Below are positions 30,134-55,568 of a stretch of 64,000 bases of DNA, piece by piece (positions within the stretch are counted from its first letter, which is position 1; each line of letters starts with the position of its first letter). This stretch comes from a virus. Taxonomy: Duplodnaviria > Heunggongvirae > Uroviricota > Caudoviricetes. Below the pieces are notes generated by a model. It was not told the origin of the DNA. It did no database searches and saw nothing but the letters and a program-made list of their open reading frames with translations. Both the position numbers and the translations under genes were made by a program. Where the stretch lies: positions 288,001 through 352,000 of IMG/VR virus record IMGVR_UViG_3300015615_000629; one strand, 5' to 3'.

Positions 30134-32453
30134 ATGTATTATACTCAATACTTGGATTACAATAGATACATTTACAAGCAGTGTTTTCCGTACAATCCAC
30201 CCATTGACCTGTATTTATCAAATAGCCGCTCATAATTGCATTATTGTTGGACTCAAGACGACAATTACTATCTTGTAAATGCTTTTCACACAAGCACGAG
30301 GAAGGGATTGATATTCCTTCGCTGCTTGTTTTACAAAATAGTTTGATTGGCAAGTTTTTCTGCCCACTCTGCTGCTTCTTTTGGAGTAGTTGCCGTTTCG
30401 CAACCAATTTCTTTACCATCTTTAAACATTCTAACATAGAATTGGCCTTTTGGGTCGTTTTCTGGAAACCAATCTACGCAAATAGTCTTATTCCCGATAT
30501 TCACCACCACAATATCTTGGTTTAATTCATACGGTTGCATTTCTTCGTATAAATTGCTGGAAATTTCAGCACCCGCTGGCAAGGAAATGGGAATCGGTAA
30601 CAAAAAGTATTCCTTATCGACTTCTATTGCTTGCGTGCCATCCTCAAATGTCAGATCGGCACAACTGGGATTAATAGCATTTTGTTTGACATCTGCTTCG
30701 ACAATTTCGCCACATTTGTAAACCACTTCGGGTAAAACAACGTCTTTGGTTGGATAATCACCTAATTTTAGGCAATAAAATCCTTTATAATGACCGCCTA
30801 ATTTTCGAAATTTAATTTTTTCCATATCGTCTTTCTGCAAGTTCTACACCCATTCGGAAGGCTTGTTCTGGCGTAGGCGGCCCTACCTCATCAATTTTAC
30901 CAAAATAAGGGTGCTCGCAGTCGAACAATCGTTCTACGCGGCTTCTGGTTTCGTTGCTGTAATAACCTGCCCAATATCCCAAATTGGTTTTTTCTATTCC
31001 CTCAGCTTCTTCACGAGTAAGCCCGTGTTCCATCGAATGCCAGACGAGAACTTCAAAATATTGCTTAGCCTCGTCTTCTGAAACAATTTTCATTGCTGGA
31101 CTATATTTGTCGTCCAAAGTAATGTTATGCGGTAACACTTTATTTGTCATTGTGCCAACTCAATCCTTGCCCGTTAAGCGTATTGTATATGTCTTTGGCT
31201 AATATTTCAAATGCGGCTTTCTTGGCTTCTTTTGTTTCTAAGTCCCTGCCCATATTAGTGCAACAATGCGTATGAGACGAACCCTCGTTTTCGTCCTCAA
31301 CAATAACAGTAACGCAGAAATCGTCCCAATCGCGTTCGAATTTAATTGAACCACCATTATTACATATTTCTGCAATTTTAGCCACAATGGCAACGCAATG
31401 TTTTTCAGTCATTTTCATGGGCTCGTCTAAACATGTTCAAATCCAGTAGATGACCGGCTTCCTCTGCTGTAGCCCTGAACATTTTTCTAAAGGTGTTCTT
31501 TCCTAGTATCGTCTCTATTTGCTGAAAGTGCTTAAAGGCTGCTTCGTTGTATTGCTTAACGCATTCTTCCGAAGTAATTTCTTTTGTATCGAATCTATAC
31601 AATAGGCTTTGAAAAACCTTTAACATTTCATCTCTTATGGAGACAATTTCACGAATTTTTTCAAGGTCTACATCTTCTACATCTCCGATTTCAATATTGT
31701 TTTCGTTATACTCAACATCTTCTCGAATTCTCCAAGCAAACATATCGTCTACTTTCATGTCTTTGATTACGGATGGCGAAAAGAAAATAGGAACTTCCAA
31801 AACGGAGCTAAGACATTCAACTCCTTCTTCTTTATAAGCGGTTAATTTACATCCGATCCATTGACCGTTCATTCTGAAAGCCTTAATTTGTTCCAATGTT
31901 CTGTAAAATCGCCTTCAATCCATTCAGACCCTTCAATAAATTGATCTCTGGTTTTGAGCCAGTCGATTGTTTCTGCCTTACCGCGTTCCCAATCGAAGTA
32001 ATATCGTGGCCACAAATCTTGAAAGTCGATATCTAAAGCAAGAGTACCAGCGGCCTCAAGGTGGAAAAGATAGTTTCCACGGTCGCAATATTGCGGACGG
32101 GTAGATGTCCAAACAATGCAATTCTTACCAATGATAAAGTAAGAATCTTTTTTGATCCAGTTTATTCCCATTTGTCCATCAACTCGTTAGCATAAGTTTG
32201 CCCCTTAGTTTGTTTTATAATTTCCTTTGCTTCTCTCCATATCCTGCTTCTATTTCTTAGTTTGTTTTTCACGGGCAACGTTATTGTTAGAAACCCCAAA
32301 AGAACGTCAATTTGCAATCTATTTGGGTCTACGTTCTCTAAAATCGAGTCTACTTCGCTAAACTCGCCGGCCAACATGAGATCGTCGATATGATTGAAAA
32401 CAGCGTCTAGACCTTCGTCGGCATTTTCTATAGCGTAAAGGGATTCTAGCCAA

Positions 32454-33032
32454 TCATCTGATTGCATAGTGAGTCTTTTCGGTGACAAAACTTAATTTCT
32501 TATCTTCTTTCCTTTGTATAAAGCGTCCTGATTCTTCTCTGGGGTCTTTGATGGCGGCTATTTCCTGTCCGGAGCAAACATTTATTCTTTCACGAGGTTC
32601 ATAGGTGCCATTTGATAAACTATTAAAATTTTCCATAAAAGATTCCGACCAGCCGGTTTTCCGGCTTGGAAGCACAAACCGACTCGTCCAAAAATAATTA
32701 AATATGGAGAGACAACCTTTTTCTAAATCTTCAAACATATCAATGATCGGTCCACCCAAACAAAAAGCAAGATGAGGATCTTGATTTGTCAACGGTATTG
32801 GATAAATATGTTCATCTTTGGGATGTCCGAAAATAGTTTTTATAGTGAAAAATCCTTTTTCGTTTGCGACTAGTTCCAATAACAATAAACATTTTGGTAA
32901 TGTTATATTTTTACTAACATTAGGCAACTGGAATAGAAGTGTTCTTTCGTGTGCCTCGTATTCAAGAGACGCATAAAATCTAGTGCCGTTTTTGCCGTAA
33001 AGTGCGTCGTGAGATGCGTGATATTGAATCAT
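32454..33032 (-). CDS. Prok-E2_D-like paralog 14
   Basis: AHERTLLF; ITLP; IPLTN...AFCLGG; FWTSRF. Confidence 0.55.
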   Translation of the reverse strand: MIQYHASHDALYGKNGTRFYASLEYEAHERTLLFQLPNVSKNITLPKCLLLLELVANEKGFFTIKTIFGHPKDEHIYPIPLTNQDPHLAFCLGGPIIDMFEDLEKGCLSIFNYFWTSRFVLPSRKTGWSESFMENFNSLSNGTYEPRERINVCSGQEIAAIKDPREESGRFIQRKEDKKLSFVTEKTHYAIR

Positions 33033-33585
33033 ATCTTTTTCTTCGCTTCTTCGATTACGGACTCTACTTGATCGGCAAATTTTCGAAGGTCTTCAGAAAG
33101 AAGGGGACTATGAAGATGCACCGTGACAAGATTCGATGTCATGATTTGCTTAATATAAATTTCTTTCGTGCTATTTAAGTAAATGTTTGTCCATATTTCG
33201 ACGCCACCTTCAAATTTGAAGGATTGTGCTGCAATTAACTTGTCTGGCGGTGCGGGCGGTTTAAGCGATAATATTCTCTCACGAATCTTGTAACTATATT
33301 CATCCAAATTTTCACTACTGCAAGCAGCGATAAGTCCGTCTGCAAAATCCCTATTTAAGCCTAGATAATTTATCGCACCTTCAACATCATCGTCTTCAAA
33401 ATACTCCGGTTCACCTTCGAATTCAAGAAGAGTAAAGAAAAGACGAAAGTTAGCCACTTTGCATATTGGATGAACAATTGGCAAGCCATCTAAATCACTA
33501 CACCGTAATGATTGGCCGCATTCGGAGATATCGAATTTTACTAGAATTTCGAAAAATTCATCTTCGGTCATCGAAATCTTTCAAA

Positions 33586-33685
33586 TAGGAGCAGAGGGAA
33601 TCGAACCCCCACTTGGAGCTAATCAGGACTCCACCTTACGGCCGAGATTATAAGTCTCGTGTGCTAACCTTTACACCATGCTCCC
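33586..33685 (-). tRNA. tRNA-Ile(TAT) with ~30-nt expanded variable region
   Basis: CGAGA-CTTATAA-TCTCG; GGGAGCA/TGCTCCT; 100 nt. Confidence 0.75.
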
Positions 33686-34283
33686 AATAACTATTTAACC
33701 TTTACTCTATCTTTTAAATCTTGAAATAACTTAACCGGATCAAGTTGCGGTTCGTCATCTTCATCTTCGTCGGCATTGCCCCAAGCCATTTTTGTTTTTG
33801 TATTCCAGGTATTCCCGTCTTTAGGAATATATGCTCGAACGTTTTTACCATCCGAATAGAAAAATATCGAAATGGGCCATTCCCAGTCGCCACCCGCATT
33901 AATTCCCAAAACCGTCAACCCATTGTCTAATGTTCGATACCCAAGTACATCCCGCCATTCTCCATAAGGCTCGGAATTTTCATTTTCGTTGTCGAACTTT
34001 ACTTTACTTAAATCCTTTTCAACAAGTTTACTCAAATGGACGTAACTGCCGCCACTTGCTCTCAATAATGGTTCAATCTGAGCCCTTAGTTCTTCAATAC
34101 TAATCCTTGCTGCAACTCGGCCGGATTCCTTCGCCTTCTCAGGCGTTCCAACCAACGCAGCCAAGCATTTTCTCAATGCTTCTTTGGCTTCTTCCAACGT
34201 CAGATTTTCGATATTCTCAGAAAGCGAGGTTGCCCAATCGGCCGCTTTTGCCATGTTCTTCCTTTGAAAAAGCCTGTTGTGTG

Positions 34284-51393: not shown

Positions 51394-52029
51394 TTAGACT
51401 GGAAGCGTCCTTACTATGTCTTCTGCAAAATAGTCATCTCTTAATACTGTCAGAACTTCGCCTAGCCAGTTTGTGCCTTTCCAAGGCTTGCCATTTTTGG
51501 CGTCTTTGGCATCGATTCCGATTCCCCATATTGTATCATATGGAGATGCTTCAACTAACATTGTTCCGGCAGTTTTCCGCAACACTTCCAACATATCTGG
51601 ATTTTGAGTAAATTTGTAATAATTGCCTGTGAAAACTATGCTTCGTGCATTTGCATCCCATCTTCCCTTATCGAAGCCTTTTACCGTTCTGCCAAGTGCT
51701 TTTTGTTCACGTGGCGATTTGGCTTCCATTATCTTTTTGAATGTATCTTTATCTCCGAAGAACAGGGCTTTTTGAGCCATCATATACTGTTCGGCGGTGT
51801 TATAGGTAATTTTGTTTACTGTAAATTTGGAATGACTCCATTGGGAGAAAGGGGCTTCGTTCCAAAAGTAAGTAAATTCAGTGTACTTTTTCATTGTTTT
51901 TGGTTTCCGTGTAATTTCGTAGGAACCATCTGGTAAAATTTTATATTCAAGGTCATAAAATGATGGTTTTGCCGAAATATATTCGGATTCAATGTTTAGT
52001 TCGATTTCTTTATCCATAAGTGCGACCAC
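51394..52029 (-). CDS. NADAR (YbiA/DarG1-like) family hydrolase
   Basis: FSQW; TAEQYMMAQKA..FGD; KF.QN; LVEASPYD.IWGIG; G.N.LG. Confidence 0.9.
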   Translation of the reverse strand: MVALMDKEIELNIESEYISAKPSFYDLEYKILPDGSYEITRKPKTMKKYTEFTYFWNEAPFSQWSHSKFTVNKITYNTAEQYMMAQKALFFGDKDTFKKIMEAKSPREQKALGRTVKGFDKGRWDANARSIVFTGNYYKFTQNPDMLEVLRKTAGTMLVEASPYDTIWGIGIDAKDAKNGKPWKGTNWLGEVLTVLRDDYFAEDIVRTLPV

Positions 52030-53014: not shown

Positions 53015-53087
53015 TAGCCGGTATCCGAGTCGAGCGGATTCTTCATCGTTCGAAGCGATGCGTGCTAGTCCCTCACACTCACCGGCC
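53015..53087 (-). tRNA. tRNA-Arg(TCG)
   Basis: CATCG-CTTCGAA-CGATG; T-loop CTCGACT. Confidence 0.75.
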
Positions 53088-53092
53088 AAAGT

Positions 53093-53584
53093 TTAACTAA
53101 CCATTGCTTCTTTCCAATATTGGAGATTATTTTCGCTTATTTCTCCGTTGCAGTATTTTGCCAAGTCCAGAAGAGCATTATAGAACAAACTGGCTTCTTC
53201 TGCAAACCCTAATATGGTAAGGCATTTCAATACACGTGTGATTCGTAAGTAATTATGGTCGCCTGAGAATACCCAACTGCTATTTTTTCGTAGTTTGACT
53301 AATTTGCCATTGTAGGCAACTGCAAATCCCCAAAATTTGAGCATTCGGTAGAATGCTTCTAGCATCTTTTCTCTTAATGCTGGATCGCTTTTAAATAATT
53401 GTATTTGTTCGGCGTCGAGTAAGGGTGCATCTGGGTTGAAGTTACTTGGTTCTGTAAGTGGAAACAGCCATTGGATATAACTATGGTCTGCTTCAAGTCG
53501 GTGGTCTTTGGAGGCTATAATTTCATCAATTTTATAGCCTTCATCGTTACCGATTTTACTACGGTAAAATTCTACTGCTTGCAT
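53093..53584 (-). CDS. OGFr_N (opioid growth factor receptor N-terminal-like) protein
   Basis: LE..H.YIQWLFP..E.S..NP.AP.L; HN.LRITR.LK.L. Confidence 0.85.
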   Translation of the reverse strand: MQAVEFYRSKIGNDEGYKIDEIIASKDHRLEADHSYIQWLFPLTEPSNFNPDAPLLDAEQIQLFKSDPALREKMLEAFYRMLKFWGFAVAYNGKLVKLRKNSSWVFSGDHNYLRITRVLKCLTILGFAEEASLFYNALLDLAKYCNGEISENNLQYWKEAMVS

Positions 53585-53602
53585 TTTTAATCCTTATTTA
53601 AA

Positions 53603-53673
53603 TCGACCGCATAGGAGTCGAACCTATGTTTACTACTCATCAGATAGTCGTCCTACCGTTGAACGAGCGGTCG
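53603..53673 (-). tRNA. tRNA-Ile(GAT)
   Basis: ACTAT-CTGATGA-GTAGT (unusual G37); TTCGACT. Confidence 0.75.
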
Positions 53674-53689
53674 GGTTATTATAACGGAG

Positions 53690-53760
53690 TAGGCCGCCTG
53701 AGAATCGAACTCAGATCTAAAAATTAAAAGTTTTTTATTCTCCCATTGAACTAGCGACCC
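53690..53760 (-). tRNA. tRNA-Lys(TTT)
   Basis: AAAAA-CTTTTAA-TTTTT (all A-U anticodon stem). Confidence 0.8.
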
Positions 53761-53764
53761 AAAA

Positions 53765-53843
53765 AGGCATCGTGCCGGATCGAACGGCTTGGAATCATCT
53801 TTGCAGGATGACGGGCCGCCACGACCCATTAACCTACGATGCC
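53765..53843 (-). tRNA. tRNA-Cys(GCA) with enlarged D-region
   Basis: TCATC-CTGCAAA-GATGA; U73. Confidence 0.75.
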
Positions 53844-53850
53844 ATTGGCT

Positions 53851-53872
53851 AAATTAAATTGTCAAAGAACAA
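53851..53872 (-). promoter_or_regulatory. boxA-like antitermination element, copy 2
   Basis: TTGTTCTTTGACAATTTAATTT, right after the first tRNA of array 2. Confidence 0.65.
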
Positions 53873-53873
53873 G

Positions 53874-53945
53874 GGCCTTCGGTGAGAATCGAACTCACTA
53901 CCGCTTCCTTACCAAGGAAGAACTCTACCGATGAGCTACGAAGGC
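53874..53945 (-). tRNA. tRNA-Thr(GGT)
   Basis: CTTCC-TTGGTAA-GGAAG. Confidence 0.9.
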
Positions 53946-53963
53946 AAATCACTTTTCCAAACG

Positions 53964-53996
53964 AAAAAACCCGCTTCAGGTTTGAACCTGAGCGGG
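53964..53996 (-). terminator. Intrinsic terminator (attenuator 2) 5' of tRNA array 2
   Basis: CCCGCTCAGGT-TCAA-ACCTGAAGCGGG-TTTTTT; ends 18 nt before tRNA-Thr. Confidence 0.85.
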
Positions 53997-54052
53997 CTTT
54001 AAGTGATTCAGCCGACCCAGGTTTTATCCTGAGCCGTGTCTTGTTGACTGGT

Positions 54053-54142
54053 TCAGGACGAGATGATGGTGCATCCTTGGCGCGTATTAATATCGCACCA
54101 ATTATGCTGTTTATCTCGTCTTGTACCAATCATGAGTGACAT
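54053..54142 (-). CDS. Leader peptide 2 (29 aa, MSLMIGTRRDKQHNWCDINTRQGCTIISS)
   Basis: ATG TCA CTC ATG ATT GGT ACA AGA CGA GAT AAA CAG CAT AAT TGG TGC GAT ATT AAT ACG CGC CAA GGA TGC ACC ATC ATC TCG TCC TGA. Confidence 0.8.
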   Translation of the reverse strand: MSLMIGTRRDKQHNWCDINTRQGCTIISS

Positions 54143-54175
54143 TTTAGTTTCTTCTACTTTCGTTCTAACTGTAAG

Positions 54176-54247
54176 TGGCGGGAGAAGGAATCGCACCTCC
54201 GACCTTGAGTTTATGAGACTCACGAGCTACTACTGCTCCACCCCGCT
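54176..54247 (-). tRNA. tRNA-Met(CAT), initiator-like
   Basis: TGAGT-CTCATAA-ACTCA; A1:C72 mismatch; fMet-like D-arm; lacks the three G-C anticodon-stem pairs. Confidence 0.75.
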
Positions 54248-54256
54248 ATTGTGTAT

Positions 54257-54331
54257 TGGTGGCAGGGGAGGGCCTTGCACCCCCAACCTTCGGGTTTAAC
54301 CCCGACGCTCTATTTTTTGAGCTACCCCACC
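54257..54331 (-). ncRNA. tRNA-like RNA with 6-nt anticodon loop and encoded CCA
   Basis: GGTGGGG/CCCTGCC-ACCA; TCGGG-GTTAAA-CCCGA. Confidence 0.65.
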
Positions 54332-54338
54332 AATTAAG

Positions 54339-54420
54339 CGGCCAGGGATGGTAACGAGCCACCGACCTCCGCTACTTGCCATTGCTGACTTTCGCGGTGC
54401 TCTCACTGAGCTACCTAGCC
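54339..54420 (-). ncRNA. tRNA-like RNA with expanded, hairpin-containing anticodon arm
   Basis: GGCTAGG/CCTGGCC; GCTC/GAGC D-stem; CCGC-[GAAA GTCA GCAA TGGC AAGTA]-GCGG; T-arm GGTGG/CCATC. Confidence 0.6.
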
Positions 54421-54589
54421 ATGTTCTTCTATATAGAAGATTCAAATCATTTTTTCTTCACGCACTTAGTAAAACCTCCTTTTGGTCAGAGTTACTAATT
54501 GCGGCCGGAATTGAGCTATTCCTTTCGGACTTACTCAAGGATTACCGGCCCTTGTGCTGTTTCGCTCTTTTCTTGCCGTCAACTCCCCT

Positions 54590-54617
54590 ACTATAGCGTG
54601 ATTTTTTGGGTTGTCAA
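54590..54617 (-). promoter_or_regulatory. sigma70-type promoter for tRNA-like RNAs, leader 2 and array 2
   Basis: TTGACA-N16-TATAGT. Confidence 0.7.
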
Positions 54618-55568
54618 GTGTTCGGCAAGAAAATTTTCAAACCTGTTTTTCTGCCCTGTATGCTTTGGCTAGAGCCTTGTTCTTTTTACGTGTTGTGACT
54701 CGACGTAAGTGGCGGGCTCGCCCCTTATGGGATAATTTCATGATTGATCCTTATTCGGCAATTCTTCATTCTCGGAACAAAACCACTTCCAGGCATCTTC
54801 AAATTTCAAATTATCTACGCCTCCTCCAGGCGGATTTCTCAGGCCGATATTTGCAAAGCAGCTGCCGTAACAGGTTAGATAGAAAACTAACTGTTTTCGG
54901 CCACGATACCACATGCCAACAGCCATATCTTGGTCTGCTGGGCCAAAATTATTTGGTACAGGTTCCCAAATTTCGAATTTCTTGGAAGAATCTGGCGGGT
55001 TTGATTTTACGCCTTGGCGTGGTCATCGTCGCCGACAAAAGCTGTATTTTCTCGTTGAACTTCAACGGCAGAAGCACCAGCGGCTTCGGCAAAAAGGCAA
55101 AAGTCACCAAAGCCATCGTCTGGGACGCTGCCGGTGATGGTTCCGATTTCTTTTTGAACATCGGTCAAAACAAGCCCTTTAGATATAAGTTCGGCGGCTA
55201 CAAGTCCTATATCTTTGCCGGATTCAACCAAAATCATCACGTTAGTCATTTGTTCCCTTTGGTAAATCTTCAAAAGCGGTTTTTGGATTTAGTGTTCGCC
55301 AGCAAGCATCACTAATCCACATATCGATGCCTTGGGTGTTTTTACAAAGCTGGTGCCAGCAATCGTGGCACATAATTGCTGTGCGAATATCACATGTTTT
55401 GAACTTGGGTTTTCTGTCCTCATACCGAGGGGATTGTATGCATTCTATGGACAGAAGTGGTTCAATGGCTATTTCTTGGGTTATTCCGTCGGTTTCTTCG
55501 GAATAGGGATAAATTTCCAGATTATTTTGGTCTTTTTCACAATGGCAAGAGAGGCATTTCACGTAGTT

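Follow-up and report, generated by a model that had tools for sequence, protein, structure and literature searches.

Introduction

The closest described counterparts of the elements reported here lie in the tRNA clusters of bacteriophages T5 and T4. The T5 record (NC_005859) places RNA1, RNA2, and RNA3 (30501-30644, 32959-33083, and 33877-33949) inside a tRNA cluster that also holds tRNA-fMet; its annotation of the first two is "tRNA-like stable RNA with unknown functions", and that of RNA3 is "putative tRNA-like RNA". RNA3 folds into an acceptor stem, a T arm, and a 6-bp stem with a 6-nt loop, followed by an encoded ACCA, and RNA2 and RNA1 fold into cloverleaf-like structures with an enlarged anticodon arm. 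In T4, species 1 and 2 (rnaC and rnaD; NC_000866: 70908-71171) are small stable RNAs at the end of the tRNA cluster, and rnaC (species 1) ends in a canonical T arm, CCGGG-UUCGAAU-CCCGG, and then an acceptor-like 3' strand. Here, we describe two tRNA look-alikes, E2 and E3, which stand beside an initiator-like tRNA gene, E1, in the uncultured megaphage IMGVR_UViG_3300015615_000629. All three are located in the window analyzed, a stretch of 64,000 nt covering bases 288001-352000 of the 572,167-bp IMG/VR record, which has direct terminal repeats and is rated complete.

Like the T5 and T4 RNAs, E2 and E3 lie within a phage tRNA cluster and are co-oriented with the tRNAs, and like the T5 RNAs, they join a non-decoding anticodon region to an acceptor and T arm of the tRNA type. 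In particular, E2 resembles RNA3, and E3 and its homolog in a related megaphage (G010b, see below) resemble RNA2 and RNA1. However, RNA3 has no D stem and lies beside tRNA-Asn rather than an initiator, no leader-peptide attenuator follows the T5 RNAs, and E2, unlike them, looks initiator-derived; T4 species 1 and 2 are 119-139 nt long and are not full cloverleaves, and T4 has no initiator tRNA. Because a blastn search of window positions 53400-55400 against 50,697 phage records returned ordinary tRNA genes only, with no similarity to the T5 or T4 RNAs, we treat this class as a resemblance and not as a homologous family.

Phage tRNAs have also been described that resist the tRNA nucleases of the host, namely the T5 tRNA-Lys against PARIS (PMC11464382) and a phage tRNA-Thr against P2-OLD (PMC12445682), and phage tRNAs are also described as replacing host tRNAs cut by VapC-type enzymes, in connection with an anticodon-loop mutation hypothesis (PMC10264068). 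These cases concern the same conflict over tRNAs, and the altered anticodon stem of E1 fits their "resistant replacement" pattern; however, they are working decoders that replace the cleaved tRNA, whereas E2 and E3 cannot decode. Our literature search, the coverage of which was incomplete, found no non-decoding decoy tRNA and no non-decoding partner of a phage initiator tRNA, and a search on 6-nt anticodon loops gave nothing specific.

Results and Discussion

E3 Is a Conserved tRNA Body Without a Decoding Loop

A canonical decoder has a 5-bp anticodon stem and a 7-nt loop that presents U33 and a triplet. The loop of E2 has 6 nt, and E3 has neither the stem nor the loop; we regard it as established, or nearly so, that the two RNAs are not codon readers. 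In E3, the acceptor stem of 7 bp, the D stem of 4 bp with a 5-nt loop, C11:G24, and the T arm GGUGG-CUCGUUA-CCAUC are those of a cloverleaf, and the discriminator G73 is followed by CUU, the same trailer as in most tRNAs of this phage. The anticodon stem, by contrast with that of a decoder, is a 4-bp CCGC/GCGG helix around a 21-nt insert, which forms the hairpin GUCA-GCAA-UGGC with a GCAA cap. The original prediction for this locus, which was made from the sequence without database searches, had proposed that the loop was replaced by a branched insert; the replacement is there, but the insert is unbranched, a single capped hairpin interrupted by an internal loop. A 600-nt Rfam search gave no hit for E3 at E<=10.

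The conservation of E3 was addressed in three related megaphages, G002, G004, and G010, which were located via their DNA polymerase (~55-59% identity). A homolog, G010b, was observed in G010 (L058:10480-10576). With a covariance model built from the two RNAs, E3 scored 89.3 bits and G010b 112.6 bits, compared with 25-47 bits for the ordinary tRNAs of seven array loci. Double-sided compensatory changes distinguish them at 5:68 (A-U to G-C) and 52:62 (G-C to A-U), and three further one-sided changes keep the pairing. Identity over the core reaches 0.68, which exceeds the median of 0.62 found when tRNAs with the same anticodon are compared between the two phages. E3 and G010b both lack a decoding loop, and their inserts differ in sequence and in length (21 vs. 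~41 nt). E3 is thus a separate, conserved tRNA body with an anticodon arm closed by a tetraloop.

Searches for additional members extended the family little. Over 15 related records, the covariance model recovered no further firm member, an insert-bearing tRNA of G002 scoring 29.8 bits, within the range of ordinary tRNAs; exact and degenerate E3 DNA patterns in IMG/VR retrieved G010 or nothing; synteny via the neighboring OGFr_N protein led to one locus, which was without tRNAs; and no antisense target of the E3 insert was found above chance in the phage genome. Two known types of RNA were also tried and rejected. An intron-bearing tRNA does not account for E3: ARAGORN in intron mode finds nothing, 21 nt is too short for a group I intron, no bulge-helix-bulge is present, the G010b insert is different and shares no anticodon, and removal of the insert restores no 7-nt loop. 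A tmRNA domain does not fit either element, given that ARAGORN reports no tmRNA in the window, that position 3:70 is U3.G70 in E2 and C3-G70 in E3 and not G3:U70, and that the D and anticodon stems are kept.

E2 Looks Like a Paralog of the Initiator tRNA

Default ARAGORN skips E2, and the relaxed setting (-ps) labels it "tRNA-?(Stop|Leu)(ta)", which reflects the six bases of its loop. All 21 stem pairs of E2 are intact; it has a G1-C72 pair, C11:G24, a D loop (AAAAAAUA) without GG, the T loop UGCAAGG, and an anticodon stem, UCGGG/CCCGA, of the initiator type. Its nearest relative is E1 (identity 0.63), and the UGC T loop and a G50.U64 wobble are common to both. At 16 of the 42 stem positions E2 differs from E1, with 6 pairs changed on both sides and all 21 pairs kept. 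When decay was simulated by 16 random substitutions in the E1 stems, a mean of 10.2 of 20 pairs was left, and all pairs were kept in none of the 200,000 trials. In the alignment of the initiator family, 95% of the cells are paired and 12 of the 21 pairs show double-sided changes, a result reached by none of 500 shuffles.

The anticodon arms were then compared directly. They read CGUCGGG-CUCAUAA-CCCGAAGGUC in Escherichia coli metZ/metW, CGUCGGG-GUUAAA-CCCGAAGGUU in E2, and CGUGAGU-CUCAUAA-ACUCAAGGUC in E1; CGUCGGG...AACCCGAAGGU is therefore common to E2 and metZ/metW, whereas E1 has AAACUCAAGGU instead. E2 keeps the host-type initiator stem and the 3' half of the loop, which are the parts changed in the working initiator E1. 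Like the E. coli initiator in its anticodon stem and flanks, E2 is unlike it in the paired 1:72, in C11:G24, and in having no CAU. On these comparisons, E2 looks like a paralog of the initiator.

E2 also ends in an encoded A-CCA. The original prediction, in which one look-alike combines a 6-nt anticodon loop with a CCA encoded nowhere else, is borne out: the loop of E2 is GUUAAA, and CCA is encoded by none of the 40 tRNAs that ARAGORN finds in the genome. The 3' trailers of these tRNAs read N73-CUU in 21 cases, with C at position 74 in 29 and at position 75 in none; the CCA of E2 departs from this rule and is therefore not a 1-in-64 accident. The N73-CUU and C74 bias itself looks like a conserved 3'-processing signal. 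The phage also encodes an ORF of 524 aa from the PF01743 family (CCA-adding nucleotidyltransferase/poly(A) polymerase) near 529 kb of the genome.

These data bear on whether the look-alikes are simply dead or dying genes, E2 having recently lost one loop base and E3 having received a junk insertion, both persisting through duplication and decay of the array. Huge phages with 40-64 tRNA genes do contain many oddities, the relatives carry other aberrant CAU tRNAs beside the initiator, E2 lacks a clear ortholog, and the elbow of E3 is degenerate, with no GG in its 5-nt D loop and CUCGUUA as its T loop. Such decay would nevertheless have to leave the stems of E2 (21/21) and E3 intact, compensate all 16 stem differences between E2 and E1, and keep E3 and G010b as conserved as real tRNA orthologs, with compensatory pairs and with a decoding loop in neither. 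Moreover, the CCA of E2 breaks the trailer rule of the genome and points to a separate maturation route, and the T5 record annotates look-alikes of this kind as stable RNAs. We consequently consider this explanation unlikely, and recent pseudogene formation more plausible for E2 than for E3; with E3 conserved and the stems of E2 maintained, the look-alikes appear not to be decaying.

E1 Is an Initiator-Like tRNA with an Altered Anticodon Stem

E1 carries the anticodon CAU within the 7-nt loop CUCAUAA, an A1xC72 mismatch, G2:C71, C3:G70, A11:U24 (D stem GAGC/GCUC), the T loop UGCGAUU, and the discriminator A73 followed by CUU, as in most of the phage tRNAs. When 5,426 E. coli genomes were searched, E1 matched best to three tRNA-Met genes that stand in tandem next to amiC, and the median number of places per genome was four; we take these tandem genes to be the metZWV initiator genes. 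The likeness to E. coli metZ/metW/metV/metY (~78% over 69 nt) includes CAU, CUCAUAA, the 1:72 mismatch, G2:C71, C3:G70, and A11:U24. However, the T loop has UGC where the E. coli initiator has UUC, and the anticodon stem, UGAGU/ACUCA, contains a single G:C pair (A29-U41, G30-C40, U31-A39) instead of the three consecutive G:C pairs (29-31:39-41) that define bacterial initiators. The relatives have A-U, G-C, and G-C at these positions, and E2 has all three G:C pairs. The originally predicted initiator-like tRNA is supported by the CAU, the 1:72 mismatch, and A11:U24; because the three defining pairs are missing, we call E1 initiator-like rather than a proven tRNA-fMet.

Homologs of E1 in G002, G004, and G010 are 77-79% identical. 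Position 1:72 is unpaired in every one of them although base 1 varies (A1xC72, U1xC72, and C1xC72), and it is unpaired in six of the seven rows of the initiator-family alignment, the sole paired row being E2. This absence of pairing throughout, while base 1 varies, argues for selection on the mismatch. The genome has one more CAU tRNA (116092-116164), but its 1:72 is paired and it carries C11:G24, which leaves E1 as the only initiator-type gene of the phage.

Initiator-type phage tRNAs with anticodon stems unlike that of the host and with fewer than three G:C pairs are common (L071-L189 in IMG/VR and L192-L248 in metagenomes). The A29:U41 stem form of the relatives, GCAAGG/CCUUGA, was observed in at least 119 IMG/VR contigs, and a scan with the E1 anticodon arm found the E1 form, GUGAGU/ACUCAA, in 57 metagenome contigs; the latter are other phage initiator-type tRNAs, and nothing resembling E2, E3, the leader, or the sequence upstream was found in these contigs.

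tRNAs with 6-nt Loops and Other Look-Alikes Recur near Phage Initiators

To place E2 among other phages, we used a sample of 176 loci fetched by two initiator-type patterns, in which default ARAGORN reported 798 tRNAs (none in the reversed control of 119 IMG/VR loci). After removal of duplicates, 13 tRNAs began no more than 60 nt downstream of an initiator; 4 of them had a 6-nt loop, compared with 6 of the 499 others (Fisher 5e-5), and these four lie 7-11 nt after the phage initiator. The four cases fall in three lineages only (L094; L107 and L149; L127), and the enrichment is therefore suggestive rather than strong; L166, a relative of L127, has a gap of 110 nt to the initiator. The partner in L094 has C1xA72 and A11:U24, and its matches in cultured Vibrio, Aeromonas, and Acinetobacter phages are initiator-type tRNAs of the ordinary kind, which argues that it is also an initiator paralog. 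In L127 and L166, the T loop of the partner, UGCAAGG, is identical to that of E2, and a pattern for the E2 T arm (GGGUGCAAGGCCC) retrieved the L127/L166/L252 lineage only. No counterparts of the 6-nt-loop partners were found in cultured phages. Of the checks named in the original prediction, a homolog with compensatory changes was found for E3, and tRNAs with a 6-nt loop like that of E2 recur by phage initiators.

Look-alikes with long arms were detected with a strict cloverleaf scanner, which gave 504 hits in 1.12 Mb of phage loci compared with 3 in the reversed control and which picks up both E2 and E3; earlier, relaxed scanners were dropped as too noisy. The strict scanner revealed long-arm look-alikes near phage initiators, including a family AGUCAGG...CCUGACU in six contigs and another with an encoded ACCA. 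L113:8798-8911 (-) and L117:8218-8334 (+) share a look-alike of 114-117 nt, GCAGAAA...UUUCUGC-ACCA, with the T loop UGCAAAU or UGCAAGU and a long co-varying middle region, approximately 300 nt after the phage initiator tRNA.

Aberrant tRNAs also accompany the initiator-like tRNA in the relatives. In G010, the order is promoter, initiator-like tRNA, two look-alikes (a and b), leader peptide, and terminator, and G010a, which adjoins G010b, has a 17-bp anticodon arm capped by UUCG (fold z = -5.5). In G002, the initiator-like tRNA is followed by a tRNA(UUA) and then by the tRNA with a 21-nt insert in its anticodon loop, and G004 has an aberrant second CAU tRNA. Two more unusual elements were noted 6 kb downstream in G010: one, 128 nt long, in which a canonical T arm is combined with a ~78-nt middle region (L058:16422-16550 (+)), and one with a 4-bp anticodon stem and the 6-nt loop AAAAUA (L058:16783-16852 (+)).

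The Look-Alikes Lie Between a Strong Promoter and a Leader-Peptide Attenuator

The original prediction had placed the trio upstream of an attenuator, ahead of its terminator, and all three elements were found there on the minus strand, behind a strong promoter (table 1). The order on that strand is promoter, E3, E2, E1, leader ORF, and terminator, with spacers of 7 and 9 nt between the elements, and the terminator separates the trio from the downstream tRNA array. It is established, or close to it, that E3, E2, and E1 are co-transcribed from this promoter (54617-54590), upstream of the leader-peptide attenuator. Similar promoters precede the initiator-like tRNA in the relatives, and in all three relatives where it was found (G002, G004, and G010), this tRNA is likewise upstream of a leader peptide and terminator. 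The shared placement fits a supply of the initiator-like tRNA outside attenuator control. Constitutive expression of the trio, as originally predicted, would follow from this arrangement, although a leader of ~170 nt with a Shine-Dalgarno sequence and a mini-ORF intervenes between the promoter and E3.

Table 1. Positions of the Three RNA Genes and Their Expression Signals in the Window (the gathering score of the Rfam tRNA model, RF00005, is 29 bits)
Feature	Position	Strand	Basis
Sigma-70-type promoter TTGACA-16-TATAGT	54590-54617	-	11/12 consensus positions
Shine-Dalgarno AAGGAGG, then 6-codon mini-ORF (GUG-R-E-E-K-M-I-stop), just upstream of E3	54449-54485	-	
E3, tRNA-shaped RNA with replaced anticodon loop	54340-54420	-	Minimum-energy fold is a cloverleaf; strict scanner
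E2, tRNA with 6-nt anticodon loop GUUAAA	54260-54331, with CCA to 54257	-	Rfam tRNA 43.6 bits, above 29
E1, initiator-like tRNA-CAU	54176-54247	-	ARAGORN tRNA-Met(CAU); Rfam tRNA 54.9 bits
Leader ORF of 29 codons (MSLMIGTRRDKQHNWCDINTRQGCTIISS), downstream of E1	54053-54142	-	ORF list
Intrinsic terminator ("terminator 2"), terminator-like site 53983-53967	53963-53997	-	First on the strand after the promoter

This arrangement raises the question of whether E2 and E3 act only in cis, as RNase P and RNase Z bodies that punctuate the transcript and set and shield the 5' end of the leader mRNA, with no role in trans, comparable to mitochondrial tRNA-like elements and the tRNA-miRNA units of MHV68. 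The tight packing between promoter and leader ORF with spacers of only 7-9 nt, the N73-CUU trailer of real tRNAs on E3 and E1, the similar position of the look-alikes in the relatives, and the conservation of the tRNA body of E3 but not of its insert sequence are all in line with such modules. A minihelix, however, is enough for RNase P and RNase Z, whereas conservation here extends to the D arm and to the lower part of the anticodon stem; E1 alone already supplies a processing site, and the order of the elements varies, being E3-E2-E1 in this phage and initiator-a-b in G010. The CCA of E2, its initiator-type stem, and the 6-nt-loop tRNAs that follow initiators in unrelated phages, with no leader ORF in view, would also be left unexplained. 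A purely cis-acting role is thus a candidate, but on balance a rather doubtful one.

Several further features of these regions were noted. The motif (A)CUAUAUA(A)G occurs 10-25 nt ahead of E3 (window 54425-54445 (-)) and of the initiator-like tRNAs and leader ORFs of the relatives (L040:1575-1600 (-), L049:1478-1498 (+), and L049:2108-2128 (+)); it might serve as a promoter specific to the phage or as a signal for processing. The leader and terminator regions of the four genomes are at window 53963-54142 (-), L039:1340-1490 (-), L040:600-800 (-), and L049:2150-2380 (+), and in G004 the leader (MSKQQKQQKQKWQHCCITGDLF) corresponds to the tRNAs that follow it, those for Lys, Gln, Trp, His, Cys, and Ile. 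Between the look-alikes and the leader ORF, the hairpin motif GGGACGCAAAGCGACCC is found twice in G002 and once in G010 (L040:1190-1250 (-) and L049:1960-1980 (+)). The first genes past the attenuator in G002 and G010 encode a small basic protein and another ORF (L040:1-320 (-) and L049:2680-3060 (+)); the second of these may resemble a PTH2-type peptidyl-tRNA hydrolase.

The Genome Reads Under the Standard Code

The trio comes from a megaphage that uses the standard code and carries very many tRNA genes. Under that code (table 11), ORFs of 120 aa or longer cover 84.5% of the genome, no region opens on stop-codon readthrough, and TAA is the commonest stop, ending 297 of 566 long ORFs. ARAGORN finds 40 tRNAs in the genome, 24 of them in the window, and Rfam finds 41, every one on the minus strand.

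This bears on the idea that E2 is an unconventional decoder, which reads UAA/UUA or promotes frameshifting through its 6-nt loop, or through an 8-nt loop on opening of the last stem pair. The loop does contain UUA/UAA, in agreement with the Stop|Leu label from ARAGORN; the 7-nt-loop tRNA(UUA) of G002 adjoins the insert-bearing look-alike; the genome also has tRNA(CUA) and tRNA(UCA); and near-cognate stop codons can be read by tRNAs with 4-bp stems (PMC13092985). Under a standard code dominated by TAA stops, however, efficient ochre suppression would be harmful to the phage, the analogous 6-nt loops of other phages share no sequence, and E3 and G010a have no loop to decode with. We find this reading very improbable. 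An ordinary ochre suppressor is not plausible for E2, which has a 6-nt loop and not UUA in a 7-nt loop in a genome where TAA is the usual stop, and stop-codon recoding was rejected on the reading of the genome under the standard code.

The tRNAs with anticodons CUA and UCA lie outside the window (G000:C1:30802-30894 and 286239-286310, G000 being this genome), and the genome still reads under the standard code; the tRNA(UCA) has a C1xA72 acceptor end of the initiator type. Within the window, the scanner found a clean cloverleaf with the anticodon UCG (Arg) and the T loop CUCGACU at 53016-53087 (-), which both ARAGORN and Rfam miss. A tRNA at 33587-33685 (-) with the loop CUUAUAA (anticodon UAU) and a variable region of ~32 nt scores 57.7 bits with Rfam and is missed by ARAGORN. 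Among the tRNAs downstream of the attenuator are an OGFr_N-domain gene (53093-53584 (-)) and a NADAR-domain gene (51394-52029 (-)).

Amino-Acid Carriers and Y RNAs Are Unlikely Readings of E2 and E3

Both look-alikes have an intact acceptor stem, with a CCA that is encoded or could be added, and an altered elbow (no G18G19; G55 or C54 in the T loop). Elbow changes of this kind resemble those that keep carrier tRNAs off EF-Tu and the ribosome. E2, E3, or both might therefore be charged by an anticodon-blind synthetase and pass the amino acid on to a transferase, in the way that non-proteinogenic tRNA-Gly species of Staphylococcus serve cell-wall synthesis, and the U.G wobble at 3:70 or 4:69 that recurs in E2, E3, G010b, and the tRNA(UUA) of G002 could be read in the same way. 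However, G3:U70, a long variable arm, and G-1 are all absent, the discriminator differs between E3 (G) and G010b (A), and no transferase gene was seen adjoining the trio. We judge such carriers to be very unlikely.

YrlA and other bacterial Y RNAs, which are tRNA-body mimics without an anticodon and are also found in phages, share this general likeness with E2 and E3. As partners of Ro60 (Rsr), E2 and E3 would account for weak Rfam YrlA (RF02553) matches across neighboring look-alikes, which score 15.2 bits here and 27-33 bits in G002 and G010. All of these scores are far under the gathering score of 69 bits, though, and the matches run from the T arm of one element into the D arm of its neighbor. 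YrlA has a permuted topology, its RNA ends lying in a long stem, whereas the acceptor ends of E2 and E3 are open; furthermore, YrlA requires Ro60, and no TROVE domain was found in the complete 572-kb genome. This explanation is close to refuted.

A Decoy or Competitor Role Is Tentatively Favored

We tentatively favor, with considerable reserve, the reading that E2 and E3 are stable competitors or decoys in a conflict over tRNAs. In this model, all three RNAs would probably be cut out of the transcript by tRNA-processing enzymes, and E2 and E3 would accumulate as stable tRNA-shaped RNAs that compete with real tRNAs for a putative tRNA-binding factor, most plausibly a tRNA-directed defense enzyme of the host. 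The factor bound by E2 would be specific for initiator tRNA, and E1 would escape the same factor through its altered stem and keep initiation running. We prefer this model because of the published cases of tRNA replacement by phages and because "escape" and "host-like" features are split between E1 and E2. The original prediction had also offered RelA-type sensors as targets of the mimics, which is unlikely without an anticodon.

Several observations weigh against a decoy role. The relatives contain no clear ortholog of E2, identities there reaching 0.52-0.64 at best, and the recent loss of one loop base from a working tRNA is possible in its case. The E3 family has two firm members only, and their discriminators differ (G vs. 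A); the recurrence of 6-nt-loop tRNAs after initiators likewise comes down to the three lineages given above. The paired CNG motif of P2-OLD is present in the stems of E2 and E3, but also in 7 of the 40 tRNAs of the genome and in ~36% of the tRNAs of the relatives, and is uninformative. In addition, a stoichiometric decoy is a weak defense against a multiple-turnover nuclease.

A wider form of the proposal can be put forward only as a speculation, and an unlikely one. Many phages may pair their initiator tRNA with an initiator-derived, anticodon-disabled look-alike that keeps the host initiator stem and serves as bait for, or an inhibitor of, VapC-type initiator-tRNA nucleases, the phage initiator itself having an escape stem; capped-arm look-alikes of the E3 type would play the same role against enzymes that recognize the tRNA body. 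If true, this would be a two-part "escape plus decoy" counter-defense for translation initiation.

Conclusion

E2 and E3 belong to a kind of RNA that the T5 and T4 records have listed for decades without an explained function. The look-alikes appear to be maintained by selection, as suggested by the compensatory changes and by an ortholog in a megaphage with a DNA polymerase only ~55% identical. One type looks initiator-derived and keeps exactly the part that is changed in the working phage initiator, and 6-nt-loop tRNAs recur directly beside phage initiator tRNAs in unrelated contigs. If the decoy model is true, these elements would represent a new RNA-based class of counter-defense, and the model predicts host enzymes that attack initiator tRNA during infection. 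If it is wrong, the elements would still be useful as markers in annotating the tRNA arrays of phages, since they are overlooked or mislabeled by standard tRNA finders.

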